A DNA stretch of 40,153 nt, taken from assembly GCA_964640405.1 (NCBI GenBank), contig CAZXIG010000001.1, forward strand, positions 1 to 40,153, written 5' to 3'. A program made the translations under genes and the position numbers. Source of the stretch: an uncultured Candidatus Kuenenia sp. (lineage in GTDB: Bacteria; Planctomycetota; Planctomycetia; Pirellulales; UBA1268). Positions within the stretch are counted from its first letter, which is position 1. Every line of letters starts with the position of its first letter. This document shows positions 6,767 through 37,341 of this stretch, piece by piece. The notes under the pieces are model-generated. The model worked only from the letters and a program-made list of their open reading frames with translations. It had not been told where the DNA came from and made no database searches.

Positions 6767-6910
6767 GGCATCGGCTCCTACGTGACGAAGGGGGCACTCG
6801 GGCGGCCCCGGTGACAAGGAGTGTACAGACGTATATGTTTTATGCAAGTTGGTCGATTTTTCGGGCGATTCTGCGGTAGGCTGTAGACGCGCGAATCAAA
6901 GGCGCGACGC

Positions 6911-12068: not shown

Positions 12069-12099
12069 CTTTTCAATGCCGCCGCGTTTGGAGTCGATC

Positions 12100-16728: not shown

Positions 16729-17349
16729 CTACTCGGGCGATTGCCCGTCGAGCGCGTCTTTCACGGCCTCCCGCACCTCGCGCCACCGGGTCTTCACGGT
16801 GCGCTCCGAGCAGTCGAGCAGCCGGGCGACCGTCTTCTGGTCGGCGCCGAGGTGCCAGACCAGATGAAACAGCTCACGTTGCTCGGCCGGCAGTCGCTCG
16901 ATCGCCTCGTGAAACGCGGCCCAGCGGTCGAGGTGGTCGTCGGCTGCGGGCATGCGGTCGACGTGGTGCACCACGCTCTGGCCCGGCGTTCTCCCGCGGG
17001 GAGCGATGTTGGTGCCGTGGTTGGCCGCATACGACATCGGGCCGGCGTGGTGCCGGGCGAGATCGATGAGCTCGCGATGGAGCTGCGTGGCCGCGAGGGC
17101 CATCAGGTCGCGGGGGGAGCCGACCGGCACCTGGGCGAGCGCCCGATGCAGTCGCAGCACGGCGTTTTGGAAGACGTCGTCGGTGTCGTCCCAGCGGCGG
17201 ACGGTCGGATAGCCGGCAAGCATCCGATGGGCGAGCGCCCGCAGGCGGTCGGCGCACAGCGAGATGATCTCGTCGCGGGCGGTCAGATCGCCACCGGCGA
17301 GCCGTTCGAGCCGGGCCGCCAGGGCCGAGTTGAGTTCGTCGCGATCCAT
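16729..17349 (-). CDS. ECF-type RNA polymerase sigma factor (PF07638-like)
   Basis: N-terminal LERLAGGDLTARDEIISLCADRLRALAHRML resembles the planctomycetal ECF sigma family. Region 2 is DDTDDVFQNAVLRLH. Region 4 HTH is QRELFHLVWHLGADQKTVARLLDCSERTVKTRWREVREAV. The track start at 17379 is a TTG, and I prefer the ATG at 17349. Confidence 0.85.
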   Translation of the reverse strand: MDRDELNSALAARLERLAGGDLTARDEIISLCADRLRALAHRMLAGYPTVRRWDDTDDVFQNAVLRLHRALAQVPVGSPRDLMALAATQLHRELIDLARHHAGPMSYAANHGTNIAPRGRTPGQSVVHHVDRMPAADDHLDRWAAFHEAIERLPAEQRELFHLVWHLGADQKTVARLLDCSERTVKTRWREVREAVKDALDGQSPE

Positions 17350-17502
17350 CGTGCCGATCCGGATGGGGAGCCCCGCCAAGAGTGTACGCGACCGCGGCCG
17401 GATTTTTGCCCCTCACCGACGCGGCTCTCGCTTATATGAATAGACGTACACCATTTGGTCGGCACGGTTGGTGACCTGCCGACGGGTGAGGAGACCGCTC
17501 GT

Positions 17503-20500
17503 ATGGGAGGCTGTATAACCCTGGGCATGGACTCACCGTGCGAATCACCGCCGACGGGCAGCGATCAACGCCGGCCCGGCGGCTGTGATTCGGGCGGCTG
17601 GGGATTGAGCGGCGCCGAAGAGACGTTCGGTTTCGGGGGAGATCATCCGGCTGCGGATGCGGCGATCCAGTTGGCGGCCGGCACCCGCCTCGGGGACGTG
17701 ACCATCGTGCGGCTGCTGGGGGCCGGTGGCATGGGCTGCGTCTACGAGTGCTGGCAGGCCGCGCCGCGCCGCAAGGTGGCCTTGAAGCTGCTCCGTCGTC
17801 CCGGGCGGGATGCCGCGTTCGAGCGGCGGTTCGCCCGCGAGGCGGAGGTGCTCGCCGGGCTGCGTCATCCGCACATCGCGCAGGTGCATACCTCCGGCAC
17901 CCGCGTCGTGAACGGGGTCGAGATTCCCGCCTTCGTGATGGAACTGGTGCCCGAGGCCGTGTCGCTCACGGAGTATGCCGAGGCGCGGGGGCTGTCGATC
18001 CGCGACCGCGTGTCGCTCTTCGGCAAGGTCTGTGAGGCGGTCGCCCACGCGCACGGCCAGGCGGTGGTCCATCGCGATCTCAAGCCGGCCAATATCCTCG
18101 TCGGCAGCGACGGCGAGCCGAAGGTGATCGATTTCGGGGTGGCCCGGCTGCTCGGCCGCGAAGGCGACGGAGGCGCGATGCCGACGCTCGCCACCGCCGC
18201 CGGCGAACTCGTCGGCACGCTGCAATACATGAGTCCGGAGCAGATCGTCGGCGGCCGCGACATCGACGGCCGCTGCGACGTCTATGCGCTCGGGCTCGTG
18301 CTGCACGAGCTGATCGCGGGGCGGCCGCCCTACGATCTCCGCGATCGTTCCTACCCGGAGGCCGTGCGAATCGTGACCGGCCGGGGCGGAGCGGGCTGCG
18401 ACGACGTGGAGCGGGCGGCCGCAGACGCCGTTTCCCGCGGCGACGCTCGGGCGCTGGCGACGATCGCGGCGACGTGCCTCGAGGCGGAGCCGGCCGACCG
18501 CTACCAGTCGACCGCGAGCCTCGCTGCCGACGTGGCGCGGTGGCTCGCCGACGAACCGATCCGCGCCCGGCCGCCGACGCCCTGGGAGTCGGCCCGCCGG
18601 TTCACGCGGCGGCATCGCGGGGTGGCCTGGGCGGCGGGGTTGGCGGTCGCGACGCTCGTCGTGGCGGTCGTGGGCATTGCGCTCGCCTCCCTGCGGGCCG
18701 AACGGCTGCGGCAGGTCGCCGAACGGGAGGTGGCTGCCACCCGTGCCCAGCTCTATTACTCCACGATCCTGCTCGCGGCCGACGCCCGCGATCGCGGCAG
18801 CGTGGCCGAGGCGCGACGGCTGGTGGCCGAGGCCCGGGGGCTCTCCGCAGAGGCGGAGCGCGCTGAGCCGCTCGAGCTGCGCAGCCTCGCGGCAGCGCTC
18901 GACGAGTCGAGTGTCGCGCTCGGCGGCTTCGAGGGCACGGTCGCCGCCGTGGCCTGGTCGCCCGATGCGAGCTGGCTGGCGGTCGGCGATGAGAAAGGGA
19001 CGGTGCGGCTGCGGCGGCTTGCCAGCGACGATGGAGTCGGTGCCACCTTGGGCGCTCACGACGGGGCCGTCTGGTCGGTCGCCGTGTCGCCCGACGGGCG
19101 GCGGCTCGCGTCGGCTGCGGCCGATGCCACAGTGAAGATCTGGAACGCCACCACGGGCGACCGTGAAACCACGCTCCACGGCCATGCGGGCATCGTGTAT
19201 TCGGTCGCCTTTTCCCCCGACGGCGGCACGCTCGCGTCGGCCTCGCGCGACGGCTCGGTGCGGCTGTGGGACACGGCGACCTGGCAGGAGAAGGCGGTGC
19301 TTCGAGGGCACGCCGGAAGCGTGTATGCCGCGCGGTTCTCGCCGGATGCCGCGCGGCTGGTCACGGCGTCTCAGGATCGGACGGTGAGGGTCTGGGACCT
19401 GGCCACGGGCGAGGTGGTGACGACGCTCGAAGGGCACGACGAACGGGTGTTTTCAGCCATGTTCTCCGCCGACGGGCGGGAGATCTTGACCGCGTCGGAG
19501 GATGCGACCGCTCGCGTGTGGAACGTCGACGCGGCCGCGGAGGTGCAGCGGTTCGCCCATCCGTTCCGCGTCAACGCCGCGGTCTTCGTCGGTGCGACCG
19601 GTCGGATCGCGACGGTGGCTGGCGACGACGTCGTGCGGGTCTGGGATCGGGCGCGGCCGGGTGCGCCTCAGCAGCTGCTCGGCCATTCCGACCTGGTCTG
19701 GGGGGTGGCCTCCACGGCCGATGGCTCGGCAATCGCCACCGGTTCGGCCGACGGAACGGTGCGGACCTGGAGCGGCACCGGTGACCCGCCGACCCTGCTG
19801 CGGGAGTCGGATCGCGTGCTCGCCGCCGCCGGCTCGCGCGATAGCCGGATGCTGGCCACGGCGCTGGCCGACGGGAGCGTGGTGCTGCGGGATGCCGCCA
19901 CGCTCGAGCACCGCGGGCGGCTCACCGCTGCCAGCGGCCGGGCGAACGCCGTCGCCTTCCTACCGGCTGGCGGTATGCTCGCCGTCGCCGGCGACGACGG
20001 CTGCGTCACGCTCTGGGATTCCGAGACGCACGCGCGGCGGCTGTCGATCGCCGCCCACGAGAAGCGTGTCTATTCGGTGGCCGGATCCGCCGATGGCCGG
20101 CGGCTCGTCACGGCGTCGGACGATCGCACGGCGCGGATCTGGAACGCCGCGACCGGCGAGGCCGTGGGCACGCCTCTCAGGCATCCACGGCGGGTGTTCT
20201 GCGGCATCTTCACGCCCGACGGCCGGCGGGTGATCACGGCCTGCGAGGATCGCGTGGCACGGGTCTGGGATGCCCGCGACGGCCGTGAACTCATGCGGCT
20301 CGAGGGGCATGCCGGGCCCGTGAACTGGGTCGCCCTTTCGGCCGACGGGGCGCAAATCGCCACCGCCGGCTCCGACGGCACCGTGCGGCTCTGGCACGCC
20401 GACACCGGACAAGCCGGGCTCGTGCTCACGGGGCCTGCCCGGCAGGTCTGGAAGGCTGCGTTCTCACCCGACGGAACCCGCGTCGTGGGCGTGTCGGCCG

Positions 20501-20688
20501 ACGGCACGGTGCAGGTTTGGGATGCGGCGACGGGGCGTGCGGCCCTCATGCTTCGCGGCCACACCGATCAGGTGTGGGGCGTGGCGTTCACCGCCGGCGG
20601 CACGCTCGTCACGGGCTCGTGGGACGGCACGACCCGCGTCTGGGGCGTTCCTCCCGCCGAGATCATCCGCCGCCGCGCCGCCCAGTGA
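17503..20688 (+). CDS. Membrane Ser/Thr protein kinase with 14 C-terminal WD40 repeats
   Basis: Hanks kinase motifs: LGAGGMGCVYEC, VALKLL, VVHRDLKPANILV, DFGVARLL, YMSPEQ. One TM helix (GVAWAAGLAVATLVVAVVGIALASL, about nt 18619-18693). By hand count, 14 repeats of the form GH..V..VAFSPDG..LA..S.D.TVR.WD between about 18925 and 20670. ATG at 17503 with GAGGAG upstream. The track start at 17455 is a TTG. Confidence 0.93.
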   Translation: MGGCITLGMDSPCESPPTGSDQRRPGGCDSGGWGLSGAEETFGFGGDHPAADAAIQLAAGTRLGDVTIVRLLGAGGMGCVYECWQAAPRRKVALKLLRRPGRDAAFERRFAREAEVLAGLRHPHIAQVHTSGTRVVNGVEIPAFVMELVPEAVSLTEYAEARGLSIRDRVSLFGKVCEAVAHAHGQAVVHRDLKPANILVGSDGEPKVIDFGVARLLGREGDGGAMPTLATAAGELVGTLQYMSPEQIVGGRDIDGRCDVYALGLVLHELIAGRPPYDLRDRSYPEAVRIVTGRGGAGCDDVERAAADAVSRGDARALATIAATCLEAEPADRYQSTASLAADVARWLADEPIRARPPTPWESARRFTRRHRGVAWAAGLAVATLVVAVVGIALASLRAERLRQVAEREVAATRAQLYYSTILLAADARDRGSVAEARRLVAEARGLSAEAERAEPLELRSLAAALDESSVALGGFEGTVAAVAWSPDASWLAVGDEKGTVRLRRLASDDGVGATLGAHDGAVWSVAVSPDGRRLASAAADATVKIWNATTGDRETTLHGHAGIVYSVAFSPDGGTLASASRDGSVRLWDTATWQEKAVLRGHAGSVYAARFSPDAARLVTASQDRTVRVWDLATGEVVTTLEGHDERVFSAMFSADGREILTASEDATARVWNVDAAAEVQRFAHPFRVNAAVFVGATGRIATVAGDDVVRVWDRARPGAPQQLLGHSDLVWGVASTADGSAIATGSADGTVRTWSGTGDPPTLLRESDRVLAAAGSRDSRMLATALADGSVVLRDAATLEHRGRLTAASGRANAVAFLPAGGMLAVAGDDGCVTLWDSETHARRLSIAAHEKRVYSVAGSADGRRLVTASDDRTARIWNAATGEAVGTPLRHPRRVFCGIFTPDGRRVITACEDRVARVWDARDGRELMRLEGHAGPVNWVALSADGAQIATAGSDGTVRLWHADTGQAGLVLTGPARQVWKAAFSPDGTRVVGVSADGTVQVWDAATGRAALMLRGHTDQVWGVAFTAGGTLVTGSWDGTTRVWGVPPAEIIRRRAAQ

Positions 20689-20737: not shown

Positions 20738-20790
20738 AAGCCCCCGGCGGGAGCCGGGGGATCCCCGGGCTTCCGCCCGGGGCTTTTGGG
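20738..20790 (+). repeat. Double-hairpin palindromic repeat, copy 1 (probable bidirectional intrinsic terminator)
   Basis: AAG CCCCCGGC GGGA GCCGGGGG AT CCCCGGGC TTCC GCCCGGGG CTTTT: two perfect 8-bp stems with tetraloops, centred on GGATCC. It begins 49 nt after the kinase stop and ends about 15 nt before the convergent dehydrogenase stop. Near-identical copies lie at 39034 and 40014. Confidence 0.85.
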
Positions 20791-20803: not shown

Positions 20804-21733
20804 TCAACCGCCGAGCACGTCGGCGAGCGTCTTCTGGAGCACGCCGGCGCTCATCTTCAGCCCCTGCATCTCCTTCGGCCAGAGCTCGATCTCGAGCGTC
20901 TTCTCGGCGCCGCCGCGGCCCACCACCGTGGGCACGGAGAGGGCGACGTCGCGGAGGCCGTAGCAGCCGGCCTGCACGGTCGAGACCGGCAACACCCGCT
21001 TCGCATCGAGGGCCAGTGCATGGATCACTTCGGCGATCGACACGCCCACGGCAAAGCCGGCACCCGTCTTCTTTTTGATCATCTCGGCGCCGCTCGTCTT
21101 GGCCCGCTGAAACACGTCGGCCCCGAGCTTGGGCGTGTAGCCCGGATACTTCTCCAGCGGCAGGCCCGCGACGCTCGCGCTGCTCCAGACCGGCACCATG
21201 CTGTCGCCGTGCTCGCCCAGGATCATCGCCTGCACCTGGGTGGCCGGTGCCTTGAGGTTCATCGCCAGCAGGCTGCGGAACCGCAGCGTGTCGAGCAGCG
21301 TGCCGAGGCCGATCACGCGGCCCTTCGGCAGGCCGAGTTCCTTCTCGGCGATGTAGGTGAGGATGTCGACCGGATTGGAAACGACGAGCACGTTGGCATC
21401 GGCCTTCATCCCCTTGGACTTGATCTCTGCCAGGATCGACCGGAAGAGCACGACGTTGCGGTTGATGAGCGCCAGGCGGCTCTCGTCGGGCTTCCGCCGC
21501 AGGCCCGCGGTGATGCAGATCACGTCGGCGTCTGCGAGGCACTCATAGCCGCCCGCATGGATCACCTGGTCGGCGATCGCGGCGGTGCCGTGGAGCATGT
21601 CGAGCGCCTGGCCGTCGGCCAGATCGGGATTGGCGTCCACGATGACGATCTCGTGGACGATGCCGCCGAGCTGCAGGGCGAAGCCCGCCGACGAGCCCAC
21701 GATGCCGCCGCCGCCGATGATGCCGACTTTCAT
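20804..21733 (-). CDS. NAD-dependent L-lactate/malate dehydrogenase family oxidoreductase (last gene of the BMC operon)
   Basis: 309 aa. Rossmann MKVGIIGGGGIVGSSAG with VIVDAN. Catalytic motifs GTLLDTLRFR and ILGEHGDSMVPVWS. The specificity loop reads ITAGLRRKPDESR. Confidence 0.9.
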   Translation of the reverse strand: MKVGIIGGGGIVGSSAGFALQLGGIVHEIVIVDANPDLADGQALDMLHGTAAIADQVIHAGGYECLADADVICITAGLRRKPDESRLALINRNVVLFRSILAEIKSKGMKADANVLVVSNPVDILTYIAEKELGLPKGRVIGLGTLLDTLRFRSLLAMNLKAPATQVQAMILGEHGDSMVPVWSSASVAGLPLEKYPGYTPKLGADVFQRAKTSGAEMIKKKTGAGFAVGVSIAEVIHALALDAKRVLPVSTVQAGCYGLRDVALSVPTVVGRGGAEKTLEIELWPKEMQGLKMSAGVLQKTLADVLGG

Positions 21734-21764
21734 GTTTCTGGTTTCTCCGTTGTGCTGTGGTTGA

Positions 21765-22670
21765 CTAGGCAGCGGCGATGCCGAGCTGCTTGCAGACCTG
21801 CTCCGTGACCGCCTTCACGAGGGCTTCGTGGTCGAGGCCCGCCGGGGCGACCGGCCGCGAGGCGTTCTCCGGGTCGGCACCCATCGGGGGAGGCGCGTCG
21901 AAGGCCTTGCGGGTGACGCCCGTCGTGCCCCAGCTGGCGCGGAAGACGTCGTTGGCGCAGATGTCGCAGTTCTCCATGTTCTTGTCGAGCCGCGGATCGG
22001 TGTAGCCCCACTTGGCCTTCAGGTCGAGCAGTTCCTTCGTCTCCTGCTTCGTGAGGTAGGTCACGCGGCCGAGGTCCTTCGAGAGCATCAGGATCCGGCA
22101 GTAGGCGTCGAGGATTTCCGTCCACCAGTAGGCTTTCTCGACCGTCTCGCCGAAGCTCACGGTGCCGTGGTTGGCGAGGATCACGACGTTCGACTGCTTC
22201 ACGAACGGCTTGACCGTGTCGGCGAACTTCTGGCCGCCCGGGGTTTCGTAGCGGGTGATCGGCACGTCGCCGAGAAACACCTCCACCTCGGGCAGCACGC
22301 ACTGCGGAATCGGCTCGCGGGCCACGGCGAAGGCGGTGGCATGCGGCGGGTGGCAGTGCACCACCGAATTGATGTCGGGCCGCTCCTTCATGATCGTGAG
22401 GTGGAGCAGGATCTCGCTCGACCGCTTGCGGTTGCCGGCGACCTGGTTGCCCTCCATGTCGACGATGCAGAGGTCGGAGGGCTTCATGAAGCCCTTCGAG
22501 ATCATCGTGGGGGTGCAGAGCACCTCCCGCTCGTTGAGCCGGAACGAGATGTTGCCGTCGTTGCCGGCGGCGAAGCCCTTGTTGTAGATCCGGCGGCCGA
22601 TGTCGCAGATCTCCTCCTTGAGTTGGGAGAGCGACTTGTCGGTGGTCTTGATCTGGCCTGTGGCTGCCAT
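21765..22670 (-). CDS. Class II aldolase (L-fuculose/rhamnulose-1-phosphate aldolase-like) with a 78-aa C-terminal extension
   Basis: Aldolase_II core: GNDGNISFRL, HLTIMKERPDINSVVHCHPPHATAF, ILANHGTVSFGETVEKAYW. ATG at 22670 is preceded by AAGGAG. The track start at 22748 adds 26 unsupported residues. The C-terminal tail ends in the amphipathic LDHEALVKAVTEQVCKQLGI. Confidence 0.92.
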   Translation of the reverse strand: MAATGQIKTTDKSLSQLKEEICDIGRRIYNKGFAAGNDGNISFRLNEREVLCTPTMISKGFMKPSDLCIVDMEGNQVAGNRKRSSEILLHLTIMKERPDINSVVHCHPPHATAFAVAREPIPQCVLPEVEVFLGDVPITRYETPGGQKFADTVKPFVKQSNVVILANHGTVSFGETVEKAYWWTEILDAYCRILMLSKDLGRVTYLTKQETKELLDLKAKWGYTDPRLDKNMENCDICANDVFRASWGTTGVTRKAFDAPPPMGADPENASRPVAPAGLDHEALVKAVTEQVCKQLGIAAA

Positions 22671-22810
22671 GACTGCTCCTTCGGGTGGCGGGTGGGATGG
22701 TTGGTGTGCGATGGACGGCGCTGCTGCGTCTACTCGATTCTGACCCACTTTTCGGGTCGCGGTCGGATTGTCGGTTGCGGGATCGCTGCGTCAGGGAGTG
22801 GTCGTGCGGG

Positions 22811-23101
22811 TCATGCCGGTCGCGCGGGCAGGTCGAGCCGGTCGATGAGCGCGGCGACGTAGGCATCGATCGGCTTGTCGGCCGGGCGGAACGGCTGGGC
22901 GGCCTCGCCCCCCTCGCTGAAGGCGACGAGCTGTCCGTCACCCGCGCCGAGGTCGTCCCAGGCGACGAGGGGCTCGGCCGGACCGTCGCCGGCGCGGAGA
23001 TCGTTCGGGCCGAGCGGCACCACGAGGCGGAACACGCCGCCCCGCACCGTGGAATGGGGTTCCACGAGGGTCACCGTGCCGATCGTTTTGCCGAGTCGCA
23101 T
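22811..23101 (-). CDS. BMC vertex (pentamer) protein, EutN/CcmL family (BMC-P)
   Basis: 96 aa. MRLGKTIGTVTLVEPH ... LVAWDDLGAGDGQLVAFSEG ... PIDAYVAALIDRL is the typical EutN/CcmL pattern. Confidence 0.9.
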   Translation of the reverse strand: MRLGKTIGTVTLVEPHSTVRGGVFRLVVPLGPNDLRAGDGPAEPLVAWDDLGAGDGQLVAFSEGGEAAQPFRPADKPIDAYVAALIDRLDLPARPA

Positions 23102-23246
23102 CGCGTCACCTGCTCGATGGATGGGTTATGTCAACCGGAGTGGTCCGGCTGCGGGACGGCATGAGTTGCCTCGCTGGCGGCCGCACGCCACGCTCGGCAT
23201 CCTCACGCCGATCCCTTCGCCTCGTTGCTTGGTTGGCATGGTTTTC

Positions 23247-24023
23247 TCAGTGAGCGTGAGACTTGCAGCCGCAGCCCGCGGGCGCGGAGGCGAGTTCGGA
23301 GGGCAGGGGACCGGCCGGCCGCGCGGCGAAGTCGCCGCACAGCCGTTCGAGGCCGCCGGGGAAGGCCGCCGGATCGACGATCAGCAGGTTCGCCTGGCAG
23401 TCGGCGGCGGCCGCCGCGAGCTGCGTCGCGTCGCGGCCGGTGACGGCACGCAGGCTGGCCGAGCGGTTGGCGAGGATCGTGGCGACGGCGGGCCGGCTCG
23501 TGAGCAGGATGCCGCGGGCGGCGTCCCGCGAGGCGTGCATCGCGATCGCGGCGATCACGTCGGCCAGGCCCGACGGTGGGAGTTGCTGCGCGCCCCGTGT
23601 GGCGCGGGCGATCGCGGCGGCCTTGGCCGACGGATCGGCCTTGCAGGACGCGGAGGCGATCAGGAACGGGCGGGGCGGGGCGGCCGCTGCCGCCGCGGTC
23701 GCGCCGCCGCGGACGATCGTGATGCCCACCTCTTTGGCGTAGTCTCGGGCCGACGGGGTGACCACCGCTTTCGTATCGACGATCAACTGCCGCGTGCCCG
23801 CCGGCAGCCGCTCGAGCGCCGCAAGCGTGATCACCTTGTCCACGACCGTCGCGTTACCTGTTTTCGCCTCGGGAGCGCCGTAGCTGCTCGGGCTGCTCGC
23901 CGGCGTGGCTGCGGGAGCTTGCGCAGGGCCGGGGGAAATGGGCGGGCGGGCCTCCGCCTGGATGCGGCGGATGACCTCGGCGACGAGCCGCTGCACGGTG
24001 TCACGATCGAGTGTCGGTGTCAT
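23247..24023 (-). CDS. Hypothetical BMC-associated protein with an encapsulation-peptide-like N-terminus
   Basis: 258 aa inside the operon, with high GC3. N-terminal amphipathic helix LDRDTVQRLVAEVIRRIQ, then a Pro/Ala/Ser linker, a short domain (VVTPSARDYAKEVGITIV), and a C-terminal ~130 aa domain ending in CGCKSHAH. I recognise no family with confidence. Confidence 0.7.
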   Translation of the reverse strand: MTPTLDRDTVQRLVAEVIRRIQAEARPPISPGPAQAPAATPASSPSSYGAPEAKTGNATVVDKVITLAALERLPAGTRQLIVDTKAVVTPSARDYAKEVGITIVRGGATAAAAAAPPRPFLIASASCKADPSAKAAAIARATRGAQQLPPSGLADVIAAIAMHASRDAARGILLTSRPAVATILANRSASLRAVTGRDATQLAAAAADCQANLLIVDPAAFPGGLERLCGDFAARPAGPLPSELASAPAGCGCKSHAH

Positions 24024-24089
24024 TGCGGGGCTCGTGTTTCGCTGTCCCGTCGCTTCCGCTCCGGGCTTCCAGTGAAGGTGGTCATGGCG

Positions 24090-24353
24090 TCACGGCTCGT
24101 CGACGAGCGCGATCGTGCTCCAGCGGGCCGGCGTCGTGTCGCTCTTCAAAAGGTCGCGGAGGAGGCGGCCGTCGCTCGTGATCACGGTGATGTCGCCGGC
24201 GCCCGCGCCGACTGTGTCGATCGCCAGCTGCGGGTCGCCGTCGGGGCTTTTCCGGTCGGCCATGAGCGGCTGCACCACGAGCAGCCGGGGACCCACGAGC
24301 GACGGGTGTTTCACCGTCGCCGTCGCCGTGCCGATGATGCGGGCCAGTTGCAT
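24090..24353 (-). CDS. BMC vertex (pentamer) protein, EutN/CcmL family (BMC-P)
   Basis: 87 aa. MQLARIIGTATATVKHPSL ... LLVVQPL ... AIDTVGAGAGDITVITSDG ... STIALVD. Confidence 0.9.
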   Translation of the reverse strand: MQLARIIGTATATVKHPSLVGPRLLVVQPLMADRKSPDGDPQLAIDTVGAGAGDITVITSDGRLLRDLLKSDTTPARWSTIALVDEP

Positions 24354-24375
24354 GGGTTCGTGTCGTTGGTGGGGT

Positions 24376-25860
24376 TCAGCTCACCGCGTCGGCGCTGCCG
24401 AGGATGCGGAGGTCGTCCACGAGCGTGCACCGCCGCTGCCGGGTGAACGTCAGCGGGGTCGTCACGCCCTCGCCCGTGGGCGTGGCGATCGAGAACGAGA
24501 GGTAGCCCTCGCCGCCGAGTCCGAGGCCGGCCACGCTCGGGCCGTTCTTCACGAACAGGGTCGTGTCGAGCAGCCGGCCCATGCGGGTCATCGTGCGGAC
24601 GTTCGTCGAATGGATGATCGCCGTGTGGCGGAAGCCGTGCTCGCTCGCGTGGGCCCGGTCGATCGCCTCGTCGGCGTCCTTGCACCGCACGAACGGCACG
24701 AAGGGCATCATCTGCTCGGTCGGCACGAACGGGTTGTCGTTGTCGGTCTCGCCGAACACGAGCTCGAGCCCGGCATGGCCGGTCGCCCCGGCCGCCTGCG
24801 CCAGCAGCGATGCATCCTGCCCGAGCAGGTCCTTGCACGGCACCCAGTGGCGATGGGCCCCTTCGCCGGTCATCACGATCGCCCGCTTCGTGAGGGCATC
24901 GACCTGCTGGGCGTTGAGGCGGAGCGCTCCGGCCCGCTCCATCGCGGCCATCATCCGGTCGAACACGCTCGCCACGACGAACACCTGCTTCTCGCCGATG
25001 CAGAGCAGGTTGTTGTCGTAGGCCGCGCCCGCGATGATCGAGCGGGCGGCGTTGTCGAGGTCGGCCGTCTCGTCGACCACCACCGGCGGATTGCCCGGGC
25101 CGGCCACGATCGCCCGCTTGCTCGACTGGAGCGCCGCCTTCGCCACGGCCGGGCCGCCGGTCACGCAGATCAGCTTCACGCCGCGGTGGTTGAACAGGGC
25201 CCCGGCCGACTCGAGCGACGGCTCGGCAACGAGCGAGATCAGGTTGTCGACGCCGAGATCCCGGTGGATCGCGGCGTTGAACCGGCGCACGCCCTCGGCG
25301 GCGATCTTGCGGCCGCTCGGATGCGGGTTGACGACGACGGTGTTGCCGCCGGCGAGCATGTTGATCGCATTGCAGGCGATCGTGGGGAGCGAGTGGGTGA
25401 CCGGCGTGATCGCGCCGATGACGCCGAACGGGGCGTGCTCGATCACGGCCAGGCCGTGGTCGCCGCTGAACACCTCGCTCTGCATGAACTCGACGCCCGG
25501 CACCTTCTCGCCGAGCACCTTGAGCTTCTCGATCTTGTGGTCGAGCCGGCCGATCTTCGTCTCGGCAAACTCCATGCCGCCGAGTTCCTCGGCGTCTTCT
25601 ATGGCGATCCGGCGGACGTGGGCGATCGCCTTCTTGCGGCCCTCCACGCCGAGTCGCTCGAGCTGGTGGAAGGCCTCGGTCGCGGCGGCGACGGCTTCGT
25701 CGACGGACGAAAAGACGCCGTTGGCGCCTTCGTACGACCCGGCCGCCGTGCGGGCGGCGGCCGCGGGGGACTTGGGGGCGGCGGGAGCGCCGGGCGCGGT
25801 CAGCTCGGCGATGACCTGGCGGACGATGGCGGCGATGTCGGGGGCGGTCGTGGTGCTCAT
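24376..25860 (-). CDS. CoA-acylating aldehyde dehydrogenase (PduP/EutE-like) with an N-terminal encapsulation peptide
   Basis: 494 aa from the ATG at 25860, which lies 2 nt after the upstream BMC-P stop. Catalytic Cys context [11 protein letters not shown]. Also [10 protein letters not shown] and [15 protein letters not shown]-terminal helix [14 protein letters not shown] is followed by an Ala/Pro linker. The track ORF extension to 26178 overlaps the BMC-P gene. Confidence 0.93.
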
Positions 25861-25862
25861 GG

Positions 25863-26171
25863 TCAGGTGCGTTTGAAAACTTCGGTGCCTTCGATGCGGA
25901 CGGTGTCGACGAGGCCGATCACGACCGCGTCGATGGGGAGGGATTTGGTTTCGGGGGTGAGGCGGGCGCTCGAGCCCTGGGTGACGAGCACGAACTGGCC
26001 CTCGCCGGCGCCGAGCGTGTCGACGGCGATGAAGGTGCGGCCCGTGGAGACGAGCTTCGTGCGGGTCTTCTCGTCGAGCCGGTAGGGCTCCACGACGAGC
26101 AGCTTGTGGCCCGTCATCGATTCGGCCTTCTGCGTGGCCACGACCGAGCCGGTCACGAGTGCGACGAACAT
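25863..26171 (-). CDS. BMC vertex (pentamer) protein, EutN/CcmL family (BMC-P)
   Basis: 102 aa. [15 protein letters not shown] ... LLVVEPY ... [22 protein letters not shown] ... [10 protein letters not shown]. The start overlaps the ackA stop by 1 nt (TGATG). Confidence 0.9.
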
Positions 26172-27421
26172 CAGCCACCTCTCTCGTTGGAATGTGCGGT
26201 GCCGCCGGCCAGCAGATCGCGGGTCTGGCGGGCGACGATCAGTTCTTCATTGGTGGGAATCACGAACACCTTCACGGCCGACTCACGGGCATGGATCGGT
26301 CGTTCGCCCGACGCCTTCGCGTCATTGGCCGTCGGATCGAGCCGGATGCCGAGGTCCTCGAGACCGGCGAGCACCGCCGCACGGGTCAGCGGCGAGTTCT
26401 CGCCGATGCCTCCGGCGAAGGCCACGCCGTCGAGGCCGCCGAGCTCCACGATCCCCGCACCGAGCCAGTGCCGGATCGACGCCACGTAGACGTCGATCGC
26501 CGTCTGCGCCCGGGCGTTGCCGGCGGCTGCGGCCTCCTCGAGATCCCGCATGTCGCCCGACGTGCCCGACATGCCGGCCAGGCCGCTGTTGCTCGACAGC
26601 TCCACGAGCAGATCCTCGAAGCCTCTGCTCGTCGCCTTCGCCACGTGGACGAGGGCGAACGGATCGAAGTCGCCGGCCCGGTTGTTCTGGGGCAGGCCCG
26701 ACTGCGGGCTCATCCCCATCGACGTGCCGACGCTCGCGCCGTCCTTGATCCAGCAGACGCTGCTCGAGCCGCCCAGATGGCAGGAGATCACCCGCCGGCC
26801 GCGCGGGCCGGCCGGCACGAGTTCCGTCATCCGTTCGGCCACGAAGCGGTGGCTCGCCCCATGAAAGCCCCACCGCTTCACCAGGTGCTTCTCGACCCAC
26901 TCCGTGGGCACGGCGTAGAGCGAGTTCCGCGCCGGGATGGTGGCGTGGAAGCCCGTCTCGAACGCCGCCACGAGCGGCACCTGCGACATTCGTTCCCCGA
27001 GCAGCCGCATCGCCCGCACGTAGGGCGGATTGTGGGCCGGGGCCACGAGCGCCATCTCCTCCATCGCCGCGAGCACGTCGGGTGTGACGCGGACGACGCC
27101 GCTCACCCGACCGCCGTGCACCGCCTTGAAGCCGACCGCCGCCACCTCGTCGACGCTCGCCAGCGGCCCGCCGGGGGCGGTGAGCTGGTCGAGCGCCGCC
27201 TGGAGGGCGACGGCATGATCCGGCACCGGCATCACCGCCTCGAGCTTCGCCGGCTCCCCTCCGGTGGACGTGCTGGCATAGACGCGGCTTTCCGCCGCGC
27301 CGATGCGTTCCACGCCACCGCGGGCAAGCTCCCGCCCGCCGACGGCTCCCCGGGATTCGGGGAGGTCGAAGAGGCGGTACTTGAAGCTGGTGGAGCCGAG
27401 ATTGGCGACGAGGATCTTCAT
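26171..27421 (-). CDS. ackA: Acetate/propionate kinase
   Basis: 416 aa. [21 protein letters not shown]-terminus. Also [17 protein letters not shown] and [11 protein letters not shown], which are characteristic of the ASKHA acetate kinases. Confidence 0.95.
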
Positions 27422-27452
27422 GATGCGGGTGCCTTCCGTGGCGGGGGTGGAA

Positions 27453-27722
27453 TCAGCTGAAGAACGCCGAGACGAGGCTCTCGGCCGGGCGCGGGATCAC
27501 GTGGCTGGCGACGAGCTCGCCCACCTGCTGGGCCGCGGTGGCACCGGCCTCGACGGCCGCCCGCACGCTGCCCACGTCACCCTGCACGACCGTCGCCACG
27601 AAGGCGTTGCCGATGCTGATCCGCTTGAGAATCTTCACGTTGGCCGCCTTGGCCATCGCGTCCGTCGCCTCGACGAGGCCGACGAGTCCCTTGGTCTCGA
27701 GAAGTCCGATTGCCGTGTTCAT
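27453..27722 (-). CDS. BMC hexamer shell protein (BMC-H, PF00936)
   Basis: 89 aa from the ATG at 27722, with AAGGAAAG upstream. AIGLLETKGLVGLVEATDAMAKAANVKIL ... VQGDVGSVRAAVEAGATAAQQVGELVASHVIPRP. The pore-loop position reads SIGNAF rather than KIGSGL. Confidence 0.95.
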   Translation of the reverse strand: MNTAIGLLETKGLVGLVEATDAMAKAANVKILKRISIGNAFVATVVQGDVGSVRAAVEAGATAAQQVGELVASHVIPRPAESLVSAFFS

Positions 27723-27817
27723 GCTCTTTCCTTCTGGTTGGGTCCGTCTGGTTCTGTAAGTGGGGAAAAGGTCCAGTTGCATCTGTCGAGAAGGGCCTGT
27801 TCAGCCCTGGTTTTCAT

Positions 27818-28102
27818 TCAGCCCTGAGTTGGCAGCACGATCCCGATGTCCTCGTGAGGACGCGCGATCACCTGCACGCTCACCACGTCGCCGATCCGGC
27901 CGCCGGCCGCCGCACCCGCGTCGGTCGCCGCCTTCACCGCGGCCACGTCGCCCGAGACGAACGCCGTCACGAGTCCGCTGCCGATCTTGTCCCAGCCGAT
28001 GAAGGAGACGTTCGCCGCCTTCATCATCGCGTCCACCGCCTCGACGAGGGTGACGAACCCTTTCACCTCGATCATGCCGAGGGCTTCGACGTTCTTCGCC
28101 AT
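27818..28102 (-). CDS. BMC hexamer shell protein (BMC-H, PduA/PduJ-like)
   Basis: 94 aa from the ATG at 28102, with AGGAGCAAGG upstream. [60 protein letters not shown] ... [10 protein letters not shown]. Confidence 0.95.
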
Positions 28103-28256
28103 CTGTTGCCTTGCTCCTGTGTCATTCTGCCTATCAGCCTTCGCGGGGCCGTCCCCGCCGACCGCACCGGCACGCGCCGGTTGCACGGTCATGTTTCGTG
28201 GTCGTGATCGTTTGGTTGCCCGCTTTCGGGCCGGCTTCTTCTTGGCCATCGGCGCC

Positions 28257-28985
28257 TCACTTCTGCCTGACGAGTTCGACGCTCGTCGCGTGGTCGAGAT
28301 CGGCCGCGTTGCCCTCGTCGGTGTCGATGTGCACCTCGAGCTTGCTCGTCGCGTCGGCCCGCACGAGCAGGTCGCGGAACACCGTGGCACAGCTGCCGTT
28401 GATCGCGAGGCTCATGCGGTCGCCGTCCTTCACGCCGAAGTGCTCGGCATCGGCGAAGCTCATGTGCACGTGCCGCTCGGCCCGGATCACGCCCTCGGTG
28501 AGTTCGATCGCGCCGGCGGGGCCCACGAGCACGCAGCCGGGGGTGCCCGCGATCTTGCCGCTGGGCCGCACGGGGAGATCGATGCCGAGGGAGATGCCGT
28601 CGGTGAAGGCGAGTTCGACCTGCGAGGCCTTGCGGGTGGGGCCGAGCACCCGCACGGTGGGCAGCATCTTCCGCTTCGGGCCCACGAGCATCACGGTCTG
28701 TTCCGCGGCATAGAAGCCGTCCTGGTAGAGGCCCTTCATCGGCGTCAGCTTTTGGCCGGGGCCGAACAGCTTTTCGACGTGCTCGTCGGTGAGGTGGCAA
28801 TGGCGGGCCGAGATGCTCACGACGAGCTTCGGCTCGGCCTTGCCCTTCGCGGCGGCCTGGGACGGCGGCGGTCCACCGGCCGACCGCAGCACGATCTCGC
28901 GGACGATCCGCTCGACGCTCGCGCGATCGAGTGCCGTTGGAAGGCCGGCGAAGGGGGCGTGCGAACCGTTCATGGTGGCGGTCAT
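28257..28985 (-). CDS. pduL: Phosphate acyltransferase PduL (PTAC) with an N-terminal encapsulation peptide
   Basis: 242 aa. Two PTAC repeats with metal-binding His motifs ([17 protein letters not shown] and [17 protein letters not shown]). N-terminal amphipathic [17 protein letters not shown] plus a Pro/Ala linker. Confidence 0.92.
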
Positions 28986-29836
28986 GCGGGGCGGTTCCTG
29001 CGCGGGGGCGGGGAAAAGTCGGTGTCGGCCTGCGGCACGTCGGCGATGATCAGCCGGGCACCGGCCTTGGAGATCCTGTGTCGCCAGACGTCGGAAAGGC
29101 CGTCGTCGGAGACGAAGACGTTGATCTTGTCGAGCGCGGAGACGAGCGTGAGGCTCTTCTGGCCGAACTTCGAGCTGTCGGCCACCACGATCACGCGGCC
29201 GGCGGCCTTGAGCATCGCCTGCTCGGTTTCGGCGAGCAGGAGGTGGGCGTTGAACAGGCCCTCGTCCGCGATGCCCGCCGCGGAGAGCACGGTCGTGGTG
29301 ACGTGCAGCCGCCCGAGCAGTTCGTTGGCGTAGGGGCCGAGGCAGACTCCCGTGCGGGGCGAAACGTAGCCGCCGAGCAGCACGAGATCGGTGCGGGCCT
29401 CCGATGCAAACAGGTTGGCGACGGGCAGGCTGTTGGTCACGACCTGCAGCGACCGTCCGACGAGGAGCCGAGCGACCTCGTAGGTGGTGGTGCCGCCGTC
29501 GAGCAAAACGGTCTCACCGTCGCCGATGATTTCCGCAGCTTTGATTGCAATCGCGCGTTTGGCCGCCCAGTGTGCGGGTTGTCGTTCATCGAATTCCGCC
29601 AGGCGGGGCATGCCGCCGGCGTACAGCACCCCGCCGTGGGTTCGCTTTGCCGAGCCCTGTTCTTCGAGGGCGTCGAGGTCGCGTCGCACCGTTGATTCCG
29701 AAACGCCCAGCTCGCGCACGAGCTCATCCAAGGCCGCGAATCCGCGGATGCGAATGAGGTCGAGCAATCGGCTACGGCGATCGTGGTTTTGCACGTCTTC
29801 TGGCTTCCTGCAGCCGGCATTATGAATGAAAGCCAT
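28982..29836 (-). CDS. DeoR-family transcriptional regulator (first gene of the BMC operon)
   Basis: [42 protein letters not shown]. DeoR C-terminal sugar-phosphate-binding domain ([16 protein letters not shown]). The stop overlaps the pduL ATG (ATGA). The start is either ATG 29836 (track) or, as I prefer, GTG 29794, which has AGGAAG 9 nt upstream and gives a typical DeoR N-terminus. Confidence 0.9.
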
Positions 29837-29847
29837 TTTATTGCAAT
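29819..29847 (-). promoter_or_regulatory. Candidate promoter/operator of the BMC operon: TTGCAA-16 nt-CATAAT with an ATTGCAAT palindrome over the -35
   Basis: On the minus strand, TTGCAA spans 29846-29841 and CATAAT spans 29824-29819, with a 16-nt spacer. It lies in the most AT-rich patch of the window (about 29815-29935). The 8-bp perfect palindrome ATTGCAAT (29840-29847) overlaps the -35. The layout resembles the candidate promoter at 15261. Confidence 0.4.
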
Positions 29848-30036: not shown

Positions 30037-31365
30037 ATGGCACCACACCCCCACACCGTCGAGCCGTCTGCATCGGGCGGAGCCCCGCACCGGAAAGGTG
30101 CATCCCGCCGGCTGTTCTTCGGGCTCATCCTGGGCGTGATCGCCGGGCTGGCGGCGAATCGACTCGGAGCCGGAACACCGCTCGTCGATTACGCAGTGGC
30201 CGCGGCCGACGTCGTCGGCAATCTGTTTCTTCGTCTGTTGTTCGTCATGGTGGTGCCGCTCGTCGTCTCCGCATTGGCCCTGGCCGTCGCCGAGATCGGC
30301 GACCTCGCGAAGCTCGGTCGGCTCGGGCTGGCCACGCTCGCGGTGACCGTCGTGCTGTCGAGTTCCGCGGTGCTCATCGGCGTCGGGCTCGTGAACCTGA
30401 TCCGGCCCGGCGATGCGCTCGCCGCCGCCCGTGGCCATGAGGCCGATGCGTCGCCCGCCGCGGAGACGGAGCGGGTGCTCACCCAGGCGACGGGGATGAA
30501 GAAGCTCCGTGACATCGTCGTCGACATGATTCCGCAGAACCCGCTCCAAGAGATGGCCGGGGCGATCGACGGCAGTTCGAAGGGCAATGGCATGCTGGCG
30601 GTGATGGTGTTCGCGCTCCTGCTCGGGGCGGCGATCGCGGCCAATCCGGACACCTGCCGGCCGCTGGTGGGCTGGCTCGAGGCCTGGAATACGGTGGCGA
30701 TGACGGTGATCGGCTGGGGCATGGCGTTCGCCCCCGTGGGCGCCGGCTGCCTCGTGTTTGCCACGGTCGCCCGGCTGGGCTTCGACGCGCTCGTCTCGCT
30801 GTTCTGGTTCGCCTTCACGGTGCTGGCCGGGTTCGCGATCCAATTGGTGGTCGTCTATCCGACGGTCCTGCGAACGCTGAGCCGATTTCGACCGGGGGAT
30901 TTCTTCCGGCGGTCGGCCGAGGCGATACAGGTGGCGTTTGGCACGTCGTCGTCCAACGCCACGCTGCCCACGGCGTTGCGGGTGGCCGAGCATGATCTCG
31001 GGCTCCGCCGCGACGCCGCCCGGTTCGTGCTCACGGTGGGGGCCACGGGGAATCAAAACGGCACGGCGCTCTTCGAGGGCGTGGTGGTGCTGTTCCTCGC
31101 ACAGGTGTTCGGCGTGTCGCTCACGGCGGGCCAGCAGGTGCAGGTGGTGCTCATGTCGATGCTCGCCGGCATCGGCACGGCCGGCGTGCCGGGCGGCTCC
31201 CTGCCGCTGGTGGCGGTGATCGCCCAGTCGGTCGGCGTGCCCGCCGAGGGAATCGGCCTGATTCTTGGCGTGGATCGGCTCCTCGACATGTGCCGCACCG
31301 TGCTCAACGTGACGGGCGACCTCGTCGTCGCCGCCTGCGTAGCCGGACCGTCTGGAAAAGCGTAA
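30037..31365 (+). CDS. Dicarboxylate/amino acid:cation symporter (DAACS, GltP/DctA family)
   Basis: 442 aa and polytopic. Family motifs LFLRLLFVMVVPLVVSAL, FGTSSSNATLPTAL, GTALFEGVVVLFLAQVFG and AGIGTAGVPGGSL. Confidence 0.9.
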   Translation: MAPHPHTVEPSASGGAPHRKGASRRLFFGLILGVIAGLAANRLGAGTPLVDYAVAAADVVGNLFLRLLFVMVVPLVVSALALAVAEIGDLAKLGRLGLATLAVTVVLSSSAVLIGVGLVNLIRPGDALAAARGHEADASPAAETERVLTQATGMKKLRDIVVDMIPQNPLQEMAGAIDGSSKGNGMLAVMVFALLLGAAIAANPDTCRPLVGWLEAWNTVAMTVIGWGMAFAPVGAGCLVFATVARLGFDALVSLFWFAFTVLAGFAIQLVVVYPTVLRTLSRFRPGDFFRRSAEAIQVAFGTSSSNATLPTALRVAEHDLGLRRDAARFVLTVGATGNQNGTALFEGVVVLFLAQVFGVSLTAGQQVQVVLMSMLAGIGTAGVPGGSLPLVAVIAQSVGVPAEGIGLILGVDRLLDMCRTVLNVTGDLVVAACVAGPSGKA

Positions 31366-36800: not shown

Positions 36801-37244
36801 GTAGGCGGCGGAGAGGTCGATCCAGAAGCCGATCCGCTCCGTGAGCGTCTCCCACTCCTTCATGTAGCGCCAGACGCTCTCCTGGCACTTGTGGATGAAG
36901 GGCTCGACGCCATAGGCCTCGATCTCGGCCTTGGAGTGGATGCCGAGTTCCTTGCAGACCTCCACCTCGACGGGCAGACCGTGGGTGTCCCAGCCCGCCT
37001 TCCGCTCGCAGAACTCTCCCCGCATCGTGCGATAGCGGGGGTAGAGATCCTTGATCGTCCGCGTGAGGCAGTGGCCTGGGTGGGGCATCCCGTTGGCCGT
37101 CGGCGGGCCTTCGAAGAACACGAACCGCCGCGCATCCCGCCGCCGGTCGAGCGACTTGGCATAGATGCCGCCGTCGCGCCAGAAGGCGGCGATCGAGGCT
37201 TCGAGGGCGGGAAAGTCGGGCTTGCCGCGGACGGGTTCGAACAT
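33849..37244 (-). CDS. ileS: Isoleucine--tRNA ligase
   Basis: 1131 aa from the ATG at 37244. HIGH-type motif [19 protein letters not shown] motif ([11 protein letters not shown]), and a CP1 editing-domain region ([10 protein letters not shown]). The track ORF extension to 37511 is unsupported. Confidence 0.97.
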
Positions 37245-37341
37245 GGGAAATGGCCGGCTGGAGGCGGGATTCTGCCGGCAGATCGTACCCCGGCCCGCGG
37301 CATCGCCACAGGGGAGGTTACATTCCCCGCAGGAGGCTGCC

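Follow-up and report, generated by a model that had tools for sequence, protein, structure and literature searches.

A predicted PVM-type metabolosome operon in an uncultured freshwater member of the Pirellulales

Which organelle do twelve adjacent genes of an uncultured planctomycete encode, and what would that organelle consume? The genes lie at 20804-29836 of a 40,153-nt stretch of contig CAZXIG010000001.1 (assembly GCA_964640405.1), hereafter the window, from an uncultured Candidatus Kuenenia sp. that GTDB places in Pirellulales; UBA1268. In this DNA of about 69% G+C, the list of open reading frames (ORFs) of the window shows twelve consecutive minus-strand ORFs across the block. The original prediction had read them as a bacterial microcompartment (BMC) operon of the Planctomycetes-Verrucomicrobia (PVM) type, in the order DeoR regulator, PduL, BMC-H, BMC-H, AckA, BMC-P, acylating aldehyde dehydrogenase, BMC-P, an unknown protein, BMC-P, class II aldolase and a dehydrogenase of the lactate/malate dehydrogenase (LDH/MDH) family. 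All twelve ORFs are present in that order, and 11 of the 12 proteins match the expected families in Pfam or NCBIfam, 11 in Pfam itself. Judged by its gene content and sequence signatures, the block is very probably a complete PVM-type metabolosome operon of an uncultured freshwater Pirellulales, which would follow the fucose/rhamnose route known from characterised systems.

Gene set and class of the locus

The predicted shell consists of two BMC-H proteins and three BMC-P vertex proteins; no BMC-T gene is present in the window, and no BMC shell gene beyond these five was found elsewhere in its 40 kb. BMC-H1 (PvmD-like, 27818-28102, minus strand as are all genes of the operon) has a 94-residue core preceded by its own Shine-Dalgarno sequence (ACAGGAGC) and matches PF00936 at 8.6e-25. 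BMC-H2 (PvmE-like, 27453-27722), 45% identical to BMC-H1, matches the same family at 2.1e-24; its 89 residues are also the length called on related contigs. The vertex proteins BMC-P1 (PvmH-like, 25863-26171), BMC-P2 (PvmK-like, 24090-24353) and BMC-P3 (PvmM-like, 22811-23101) match PF03319 at 1.2e-27, 2.4e-21 and 1.5e-15, respectively. They share 27-38% mutual identity, BMC-P3 being 27-31% identical to the other two.

Three enzymes score above curated NCBIfam cut-offs. These are the PduL phosphotransacylase (PvmB-like, 28257-28985; PF06130 (PTAC), 1e-71; NF011652, 245 bits against a cut-off of 209), the acetate/propionate-family kinase AckA (PvmG-like, 26171-27421; PF00871, 9e-99; TIGR00016, 322 against 293) and the 494-residue CoA-acylating aldehyde dehydrogenase (PvmJ-like, 24376-25860; Aldedh; the microcompartment-type subfamily NF011927, 607 against 403). 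The signature enzyme, a 301-residue class II aldolase (PvmN-like, 21765-22670), matches PF00596 at 2.8e-50, and the 309-residue LDH/MDH-family dehydrogenase (PvmO-like, 20804-21733) carries Ldh_1_N and Ldh_1_C domains. Profile searches thus return the families that had been named for the shell (PF00936 for two genes, PF03319 for three), for the phosphotransacylase (PTAC) and for the aldolase (Aldolase_II).

All twelve ORFs are intact, with coding-type G+C at third codon positions (GC3) of 0.78-0.90. The three close junctions described earlier are exact in the sequence: the deoR stop and pduL start overlap as ATGA at 28982-28985 and the ackA stop and BMC-P1 start as TGATG at 26169-26173, both read directly, and the BMC-P1 and aldehyde dehydrogenase genes are separated by two nucleotides (CC, 25861-25862). 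Several starts fall within longer, mechanically called ORFs, namely 25860 for the aldehyde dehydrogenase, 22670 for the aldolase (preceded by a GAAGGAG Shine-Dalgarno sequence), 27722 for BMC-H2 and 28102 or 28249 for BMC-H1. On identical metagenomic contigs, independent gene calling gave the same starts. The long plus-strand ORFs that cover the operon, none with a Pfam match, were rejected as shadow ORFs.

The PVM assignment draws on gene content, gene order, shell set, host and sequence signatures. The pvm operon of Planctopirus limnophila, reportedly credited to Erbilgin et al. in 2014, was compared by its published description. The signature of the type is the class II aldolase, with DeoR and acetate kinase as ancillary genes and an LDH/MDH-pfam protein replacing the usual alcohol dehydrogenase (PMC4207490). 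In the PMC8217296 supplement, the PVM type has two BMC-H genes and a BMC-P triplet and is listed, with 285 loci in 2021, only in Planctomycetes and Verrucomicrobia; the supplementary table gives PvmD/E as BMC-H, PvmH as BMC-P and PvmO as an Ldh_1_C protein. The operon of the window combines the PF00596 aldolase, the acylating aldehyde dehydrogenase, a PduL with a diagnostic Phe, DeoR, acetate kinase, the LDH/MDH dehydrogenase, two BMC-H and three BMC-P, and has a PvmL with an encapsulation peptide between BMC-P2 and BMC-P3, all in a planctomycete host. The P. limnophila operon, pvmABDEGHIJKLMNO, has 13 genes and is rhamnose-induced (PMC11958385); set beside the catalogued types, the order here is collinear with pvmABDEGH-JKLMNO. 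The claim that content and order match the PVM type of P. limnophila is therefore borne out by published gene order, shell set and host phylum. The locus fits existing PVM definitions and, as had also been proposed, is not a new BMC class.

Four putative cargo proteins carry encapsulation-peptide-like helices; the aldolase has its helix at the C-terminus, whereas the aldehyde dehydrogenase, PduL and PvmL have theirs at the N-terminus. In PduL the helix is followed by a Pro-rich linker, and in the aldehyde dehydrogenase by an Ala/Pro linker. The best solved relatives of the latter are the microcompartment enzymes 5jfl and 4c3s, and its Cys motif aligns to DNNLPCVAEK. The aldolase has a C-terminal extension of about 80 residues, a Pro-rich linker and then the helix LDHEALVKAVTEQVCKQLG, which was called by sequence pattern and has a hydrophobic moment of 0.40. 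Aldolases of microcompartments typically carry an encapsulation peptide at their C-terminus (PMC4594438).

To place the operon among its relatives, genome contigs were scanned with a profile of the PvmL alignment, which returned 71 loci, all from metagenome-assembled genomes (MAGs) and none from a cultured reference. Sixty-nine are from Planctomycetota, mostly labelled Pirellulales or Planctomycetia and many of them lake-derived; the remaining two are Comamonas MAGs that match a short domain only. Because the same 12-gene order is complete in 29 loci and recurs in about 40 more that are truncated at contig ends, all collinear and with no rearrangement seen, the arrangement is far beyond chance. 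Shell proteins and enzymes are about 75-100% identical across related loci. We take the source organism to be a different species from any genome representative, since the nearest locus, L007 from a Lake Mendota Pirellulales MAG, shares only 90.5% DNA identity over 9.1 kb. An identical aldehyde dehydrogenase is encoded on 12 short metagenomic contigs, next to the same neighbouring genes. Protein look-up added two more distant loci. One, L079, repeats the 12-gene order at about 56-66% identity; the other, L078 (9419-10004 and 10933-12125), is a planctomycete PVM locus without pvmL in which the BMC-P2 and BMC-P3 genes are adjacent. In L078 the LDH-like gene is split between two called ORFs of 217 and 180 residues, which suggests a frameshift or an assembly error.

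The predicted pathway and its substrate

The pathway steps are modelled on P. limnophila and the PVM literature (PMC4207490, PMC4784909, PMC8857213, PMC11958385). A DeoR-controlled, sigma-70-type promoter would drive the 12-gene operon, with DeoR translationally coupled to pduL, and the two BMC-H and three BMC-P proteins would build a minimal shell without BMC-T. Genes elsewhere in the genome would supply the isomerase and the kinase that act on L-fucose or L-rhamnose. The aldolase would then cleave L-fuculose-1-phosphate or L-rhamnulose-1-phosphate to dihydroxyacetone phosphate and L-lactaldehyde, the aldehyde dehydrogenase would oxidise L-lactaldehyde to lactyl-CoA with formation of NADH, PduL would convert lactyl-CoA to lactyl-phosphate and recycle CoA, and the kinase would turn lactyl-phosphate into lactate and ATP. 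NAD+ would be regenerated by the LDH/MDH-like PvmO, probably by conversion of lactaldehyde to 1,2-propanediol as the literature predicts; there is no other dehydrogenase in the operon. The shell would confine toxic lactaldehyde, and PvmL would be an encapsulated accessory protein.

Individual residues are consistent with this route. The best solved relatives of the aldolase are L-fuculose-phosphate aldolases, and its E86, H105, H107 and H168 correspond to the metal ligands of FucA; the homologues listed in a search with it are all at least 72% identical. In PduL, whose nearest solved structure is rPduL (5cuo), Phe91 aligns with Gln77 of rPduL and is invariant in about 45 orthologs. Position 77 is Tyr or Phe in most pvm PduLs and Gln or Glu in other PduLs, and the aromatic residue has been tied to lactyl-CoA (PMC4784909).

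Several observations weigh against the assignment. No fucose or rhamnose isomerase, kinase, mutarotase, fucosidase or dedicated transporter was found in the 40-kb window, as the original prediction had noted for the isomerase, the kinase and a sugar transporter. Because no sugar-specific genes lie in the window, the fucose/rhamnose substrate is assigned by homology only, which is also how it had first been proposed; the upstream sugar genes of P. limnophila presumably lie outside its pvm operon as well. The aldolase scores below every NCBIfam equivalog cut-off for FucA, RhaD and AraD. There are 12 genes here and 13 in P. limnophila, a counterpart of pvmI being absent because only 2 nt lie between the BMC-P1 and aldehyde dehydrogenase genes. 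Inspection of the termini of AckA and of the LDH/MDH-like dehydrogenase revealed no evident encapsulation peptide, which bears on their enclosure within the shell.

The dehydrogenase itself is a further point on that side. It scores below the cut-offs of both the L-LDH model TIGR01771 (281 against 303.6) and the MDH models NF004863 and TIGR01763 (263.5 against 283), and it has Arg80 in a loop reading LRRKPDESR at the position of LDH Gln102. Position 102 is the classical specificity determinant of the LDH/MDH family, Gln in LDH and, within a PRK context, Arg in MDH. The protein keeps the equivalents of the LDH catalytic residues Arg109, Asp168, Arg171 and His195, R86 among them, and the loop TAGLRRKPDESRL (residues 75-87) is essentially invariant, being kept in 50 of 51 orthologs and also where a locus is just 66% identical. 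Because an Arg occupies the discriminator position and neither the LDH nor the MDH model fits, PvmO may act on lactaldehyde, as the literature predicts, on lactate/pyruvate, or on a 2-oxo acid that is dicarboxylic or anionic in some other way.

The same architecture could serve a different substrate, with the aldolase cleaving another ketose-1-phosphate and the core enzymes processing the resulting aldehyde; examples are D-ribulose-1-phosphate, which would yield glycolaldehyde, and a different 6-deoxyhexulose phosphate derived from sulfated glycans. That the aldolase falls short of the FucA and RhaD cut-offs, with its best score on an unrelated class II family, speaks for this idea, as do the missing sugar genes, a window rich in sulfatases with a glucuronyl-esterase-like gene, and the described promiscuity of class II aldolases (PMC4207490). 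The aromatic residue of PduL, tied to lactyl-CoA in pvm loci, argues the other way, and so do the orthologous loci of P. limnophila and Verrucomicrobia, which have been tied to fucose and rhamnose by experiment (PMC11958385, PMC8857213). For P. limnophila, formation of the organelle and both induction of and need for the operon on L-fucose or L-rhamnose are reported (PMC11958385). We consider a different substrate improbable, and retain the fucose/rhamnose route as the preferred assignment.

Far less likely still is membership of another aldolase-containing class (PVM-like, GRM5, MUF2 or MIC4). According to PMC4207490 and the PMC8217296 supplement, these classes also combine a PF00596 aldolase with an aldehyde dehydrogenase and a phosphotransacylase, sometimes with an acetate kinase as well. 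Against this stand the planctomycete host, a gene order that follows pvmABDEGH-JKLMNO, a PvmL bearing the PVM encapsulation peptide, and a window in which no glycyl-radical enzyme, activase, BMC-T or PduS was found; MUF2 is mainly from Gemmatimonadetes and has BMC-T. PVM-like and GRM5 membership in particular was rejected, with two BMC-H against three BMC-P and neither a glycyl-radical enzyme nor an activase in the window. A decaying or silent relic, one that has lost the ability to form an organelle, is hardly credible, with 12 of 12 ORFs intact at coding-type GC3 of 0.78-0.90, catalytic residues kept, proteins 73-100% identical in the nearest species and gene order strictly retained. The locus is an intact copy of a well-known organelle operon type, and the refinements described below leave that classification unchanged.

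The PvmL protein and the pduL/BMC-H1 spacer

The gene between BMC-P2 and BMC-P3 (23247-24023) had been left as encoding an unknown protein. Its 258-residue product indeed has no Pfam match, PF02502 included; it is nonetheless identifiable as a PvmL-type cargo protein from its position, its match to an encapsulation-peptide hidden Markov model (HMM) and its match to TIGR02536. Its encapsulation peptide, at residues 5-24, is joined by a Pro/Ala linker to a small domain of the form VITL...TPSARD (about 56-105), and a degenerate RpiB/LacAB-like domain (about 118-235) and a C-terminal motif follow. The N-terminus, LDRDTVQRLVAEVIRRIQA, follows the consensus lDselIerIVrEVLrRLra of HMM02441_01.PVM, and from the published emission table of that profile it scores 21.5 nats, about 31 bits, over 19 positions (7-25). 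In the AlphaFold2 model (mean pLDDT 76), the helix of residues 7-24 has a pLDDT of about 93, and its hydrophobic moment of 0.81 is the highest of any terminus in the operon.

The small domain has the pattern VITL..LERLP.G......AV(V/I)TPSARD.A...GI. The C-terminal part of TIGR02536 (eut_hyp) matches it over residues 62-104 at 1e-6, and there is a weak match to PF15953 ('PDU_like'). In the two Comamonas MAGs (L076, 6360-6533; L077, 10001-10222) the same domain adjoins aldehyde dehydrogenase and BMC-H genes. Because it is present in these proteobacterial loci, the domain is not PVM-specific.

The larger domain recalls an isomerase. PF02502 (LacAB_rpiB) matches weakly in 17 of 47 PvmL homologs, and one distant member passes with 40.9 bits against a cut-off of 24.7. 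A Foldseek search with the model gave RpiB 5ifz as its best match, which at E = 0.32 is not significant, and a profile search of the PDB with the PvmL alignment gave no match. The catalytic residues of E. coli RpiB, which we take to be Cys66, Thr68 and His99, do not appear to be kept in PvmL when it is aligned to that enzyme by hand. An RpiB/LacAB isomerase was accordingly rejected as an identity for PvmL, the protein of the window lying below the PF02502 gathering score and the catalytic residues being apparently lost. Because the RpiB-like domain would lack these residues, a scaffold or ligand-binding role is more likely than an isomerase.

At the C-terminus of PvmL (23247-23270, minus strand) there is a GCGCKxHxH motif (CxCxxHxH), accompanied by a nearly invariant Cys229. 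The motif is kept in the Pirellulales clade and in some distant members of the family and is absent in others; together with Cys229 it may form a metal site. PvmL is the fastest-evolving gene of the operon, at 42-79% identity across related loci, and a distant homolog sits in the same slot of locus L079. A full-library profile search at E <= 0.001 placed 1851 representative clusters in the family. A search of the literature on PvmD, PvmE, PvmL and PvmO turned up nothing of relevance.

The spacer between pduL and BMC-H1 is 151 nt long, conserved, and unusually long within an otherwise tightly packed operon. It contains a double stem-loop (28143-28190, minus strand) that is present in 42 of 42 aligned loci. 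Hairpin 1 (28190-28160) reads GACCGT...CCGGC-GCGT-GCCGG...GCGGTC in the window and GACCGT-NNN-NCCGGC-GCGT-GCCGGN-GCGGTC across loci, at -14 to -21 kcal/mol. Hairpin 2 (28158-28143, GCGGGG-ACGG-CCCCGC) is GC-rich, and its stem sequence differs between clades. In the alignment 93% of cells are paired, compared with 36-51% when partners are slid; three stem pairs have two-sided changes (for example CG 33/UG 5/UA 4 and GC 13/GU 12/AU 11), and the observed number of double changes was reached by no shuffle. There is exactly one copy per locus and one in the 40-kb window, and a dispersed repetitive extragenic palindromic (REP) element was rejected because of this single copy. Rfam has no match for the double stem-loop, nor any at E <= 1 in a scan of the operon.

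A shuffle test of RNA folding in the spacer was not significant (z = -1.0), which counts against an RNA structure, and most of the double stem-loop is simply invariant, which weakens the covariation case. Because the folding score is not significant, the case for the element rests on its conservation, its fixed single position in each locus and a few covarying pairs. From the alignments we conclude that the stem-loops are under selection at the nucleotide level. The element may act at the DNA level, for example as a protein binding site.

The same spacer can be read as a polybasic ORF (28103-28249, minus strand) that would extend BMC-H1 to a 143-residue isoform. Its ATG, at 28249, lies 7 nt past the pduL stop; elsewhere it overlaps the pduL stop as ATGA. 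The encoded peptide has the form M[AT]KK[KR]AAKR... and is in frame with BMC-H1 in about 30 of the 42 loci, in nine different lengths of 129-189 nt that are all multiples of three. Three of the 42 have the ORF out of frame, seven keep the hairpins and have no ORF, and one sub-clade reads the hairpin in a different frame. Pairwise differences at codon positions 1, 2 and 3 number 183, 123 and 252, a modest third-position excess. Gene calls for BMC-H1 give 94 residues on L002 and L003 and 143 on L001 and L005, and called 'EutM' proteins of 137-151 residues already exist from the long-form arrangement.

Frame conservation thus makes a long polybasic BMC-H isoform plausible. In a fuller and more tentative scheme, which we think possible and would not favour, the BMC-H1 gene would yield two products. 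Translation from 28249, coupled to pduL, would give a long form with a polybasic, histone H1 tail-like N-terminal tail of about 49 residues, and the internal Shine-Dalgarno sequence and ATG at 28102 would give the 94-residue form. The double stem-loop inside the extension would set the ratio of long to short form, or of shell to enzyme expression, and the basic tail, on the outer face of the shell, could anchor the organelle to nucleic acid or some other polyanion, for instance in positioning or inheritance.

Two further observations concern the spacer and the shell genes. In six loci (L018, L020, L028, L034, L045 and L053), extra tandem palindromic repeats, such as CACAGGTTGCCAACCTGTG and GACAGGCTTCAGCCTGTC, lie upstream of the conserved hairpins, and these insertions stretch the pduL/BMC-H spacer to as much as 296 nt. 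Other planctomycete genomes, some of them with contigs of 0.7 to 7.4 Mb, have a fusion of the two BMC-H genes that encodes a single tandem-domain protein of 187-221 residues (proteins P0481, P0440, P0507, P0416 and P0472), in effect a BMC-T-like fusion of PvmD and PvmE.

Regulation, neighbourhood and comparison with known systems

The operon opens with a DeoR-family regulator (PvmA-like), which had been drawn up to 29836. The family assignment stands, on HTH_DeoR and DeoRC matches together with NCBIfam DeoR/GlpR-type matches that are all below equivalog cut-offs; the start does not. The mechanical ORF from ATG 29836 has 284 residues, and that ATG is not kept in orthologous loci. A GTG or ATG at the position of 29794 is kept, with an AGGAAG Shine-Dalgarno sequence upstream. 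A sigma-70-like promoter, TTGCAA-N16-CATAAT (29819-29846, minus strand), was located by promoter scan and conservation; it overlaps the first codons of the ORF from 29836, and its -35 and -10 boxes are kept in position across about 35 orthologous loci with the consensus TTGMAA-N16-17-CAYAMT. Because ATG 29836 is unconserved and the GTG/ATG is conserved behind a conserved promoter, the regulator probably starts at GTG 29794 (28982-29794, 270 residues), and the first 14 codons of the longer ORF are probably promoter and leader.

At the other end of the operon, two GC-rich hairpins lie between an A-tract and a U-rich tract (20741-20782, recorded on the minus strand). Read from the sequence and its fold energy (-46.5 kcal/mol, z = -2.3), they are probably a bidirectional terminator common to the operon and a convergent kinase gene. 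Within the operon, the spacer of about 120-140 nt between BMC-P3 and the aldolase contains a block of about 35 nt, CAATCCGACCGCGACCCGAAAAGTGGGTCAGAATCGAG (at about 22733-22770, minus strand), that is conserved across related loci and includes a small hairpin, GACCC-GAAAAGT-GGGTC; it may serve as a promoter within the operon or as an RNA element.

The flanks hold rpoD, dnaG, ileS, sulfatases, a glucuronyl-esterase-like gene, an S46 peptidase, an extracytoplasmic function (ECF) sigma factor, a Ser/Thr kinase with WD40 repeats and an SDF-family symporter, and ARAGORN found no tRNA genes in the window. The ECF sigma factor gene (minus strand) and the 1077-residue kinase-WD40 gene (plus strand, convergent with the operon) occupy 16729-20688 and adjoin the operon in about 25 related loci, a neighbourhood that may be vertical synteny only. 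Divergent from the operon promoter, at 30037-31365 on the plus strand, is a sodium:dicarboxylate symporter family (SDF) gene. Its position is kept only in the closest relatives, L007 and L009, so a functional link to the operon is doubtful. Two sulfatases and the glucuronyl-esterase-like protein are encoded at 6887-8956, 12031-14544 and 37165-39012, and two of the three carry 3-keto-disaccharide-hydrolase domains. These genes point to a lifestyle of degrading sulfated polysaccharides, consistent with deoxy-sugar use.

Taken together, our results add a PVM operon from an abundant, uncultured freshwater lineage of Pirellulales and support compartmentalised deoxy-sugar catabolism as a standard planctomycete trait, in lakes as well as the sea. 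They also correct the DeoR start and supply a conserved promoter, and they identify the 'unknown' gene as PvmL, a widespread and uncharacterised cargo family. The invariant Arg at the LDH/MDH specificity position questions the substrate assumed for PvmO. We regard the anatomy of PvmL, this Arg, and the conserved stem-loop with its possible long shell-protein isoform as mildly novel.

Compared with the pvm operon of P. limnophila, the locus has the same DeoR, PduL, two BMC-H, AckA, BMC-P, aldehyde dehydrogenase, BMC-P, PvmL, BMC-P, aldolase and LDH/MDH-like genes, the same shell set of two BMC-H and a BMC-P triplet without BMC-T, and the same aromatic residue at the Gln77 position of PduL. The two differ between deoR and pduL, where P. 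limnophila has 46 bp of spacer containing a predicted promoter whereas here the deoR stop overlaps the pduL start, and between pduL and BMC-H, where the 151-nt spacer carries the conserved double hairpin and the possible polybasic BMC-H extension. Verrucomicrobia PVM loci (Lentimonas, Puniceicoccaceae, Akkermansiaceae) have the same enzyme set and the same proposed route, from fucose or rhamnose through lactaldehyde to lactate or 1,2-propanediol, but they are described as two contiguous loci with three BMC-H and three BMC-P (PMC8857213), whereas here there is one operon with two BMC-H.

PVM-like and GRM5 loci, from Firmicutes and others, have in common with it a homologous PF00596 aldolase whose C-terminus carries an encapsulation peptide, and in many cases a DeoR regulator. 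PVM-like loci differ in a GRM5-like gene order and in an aldehyde dehydrogenase, phosphotransacylase and BMC-P of other clades, and GRM5 differs in having a glycyl-radical diol dehydratase, of which there is none in the window. PvmL resembles the RpiB (PF02502) of SPU microcompartments in having a flavodoxin-like, RpiB-type fold signal and an encapsulation peptide as SPU cargo does. It differs in that the PvmL of the window has no significant PF02502 match, and the published catalog, in the PMC8217296 supplementary table, places PvmL in the PF02441 'Flavoprotein' family. With the eut hypothetical proteins of TIGR02536, PvmL shares the small VITL...TPSARD domain. The two predicted starts of BMC-H1 have a parallel in PduB/PduB' of the Pdu microcompartment, where one shell gene gives a long and a short product from two in-frame starts. 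BMC-H1 would likewise give two products from in-frame starts; here, by contrast, the extension is polybasic, belongs to a BMC-H and not to a BMC-T, and has a conserved double stem-loop within it, with the long form predicted from conservation.

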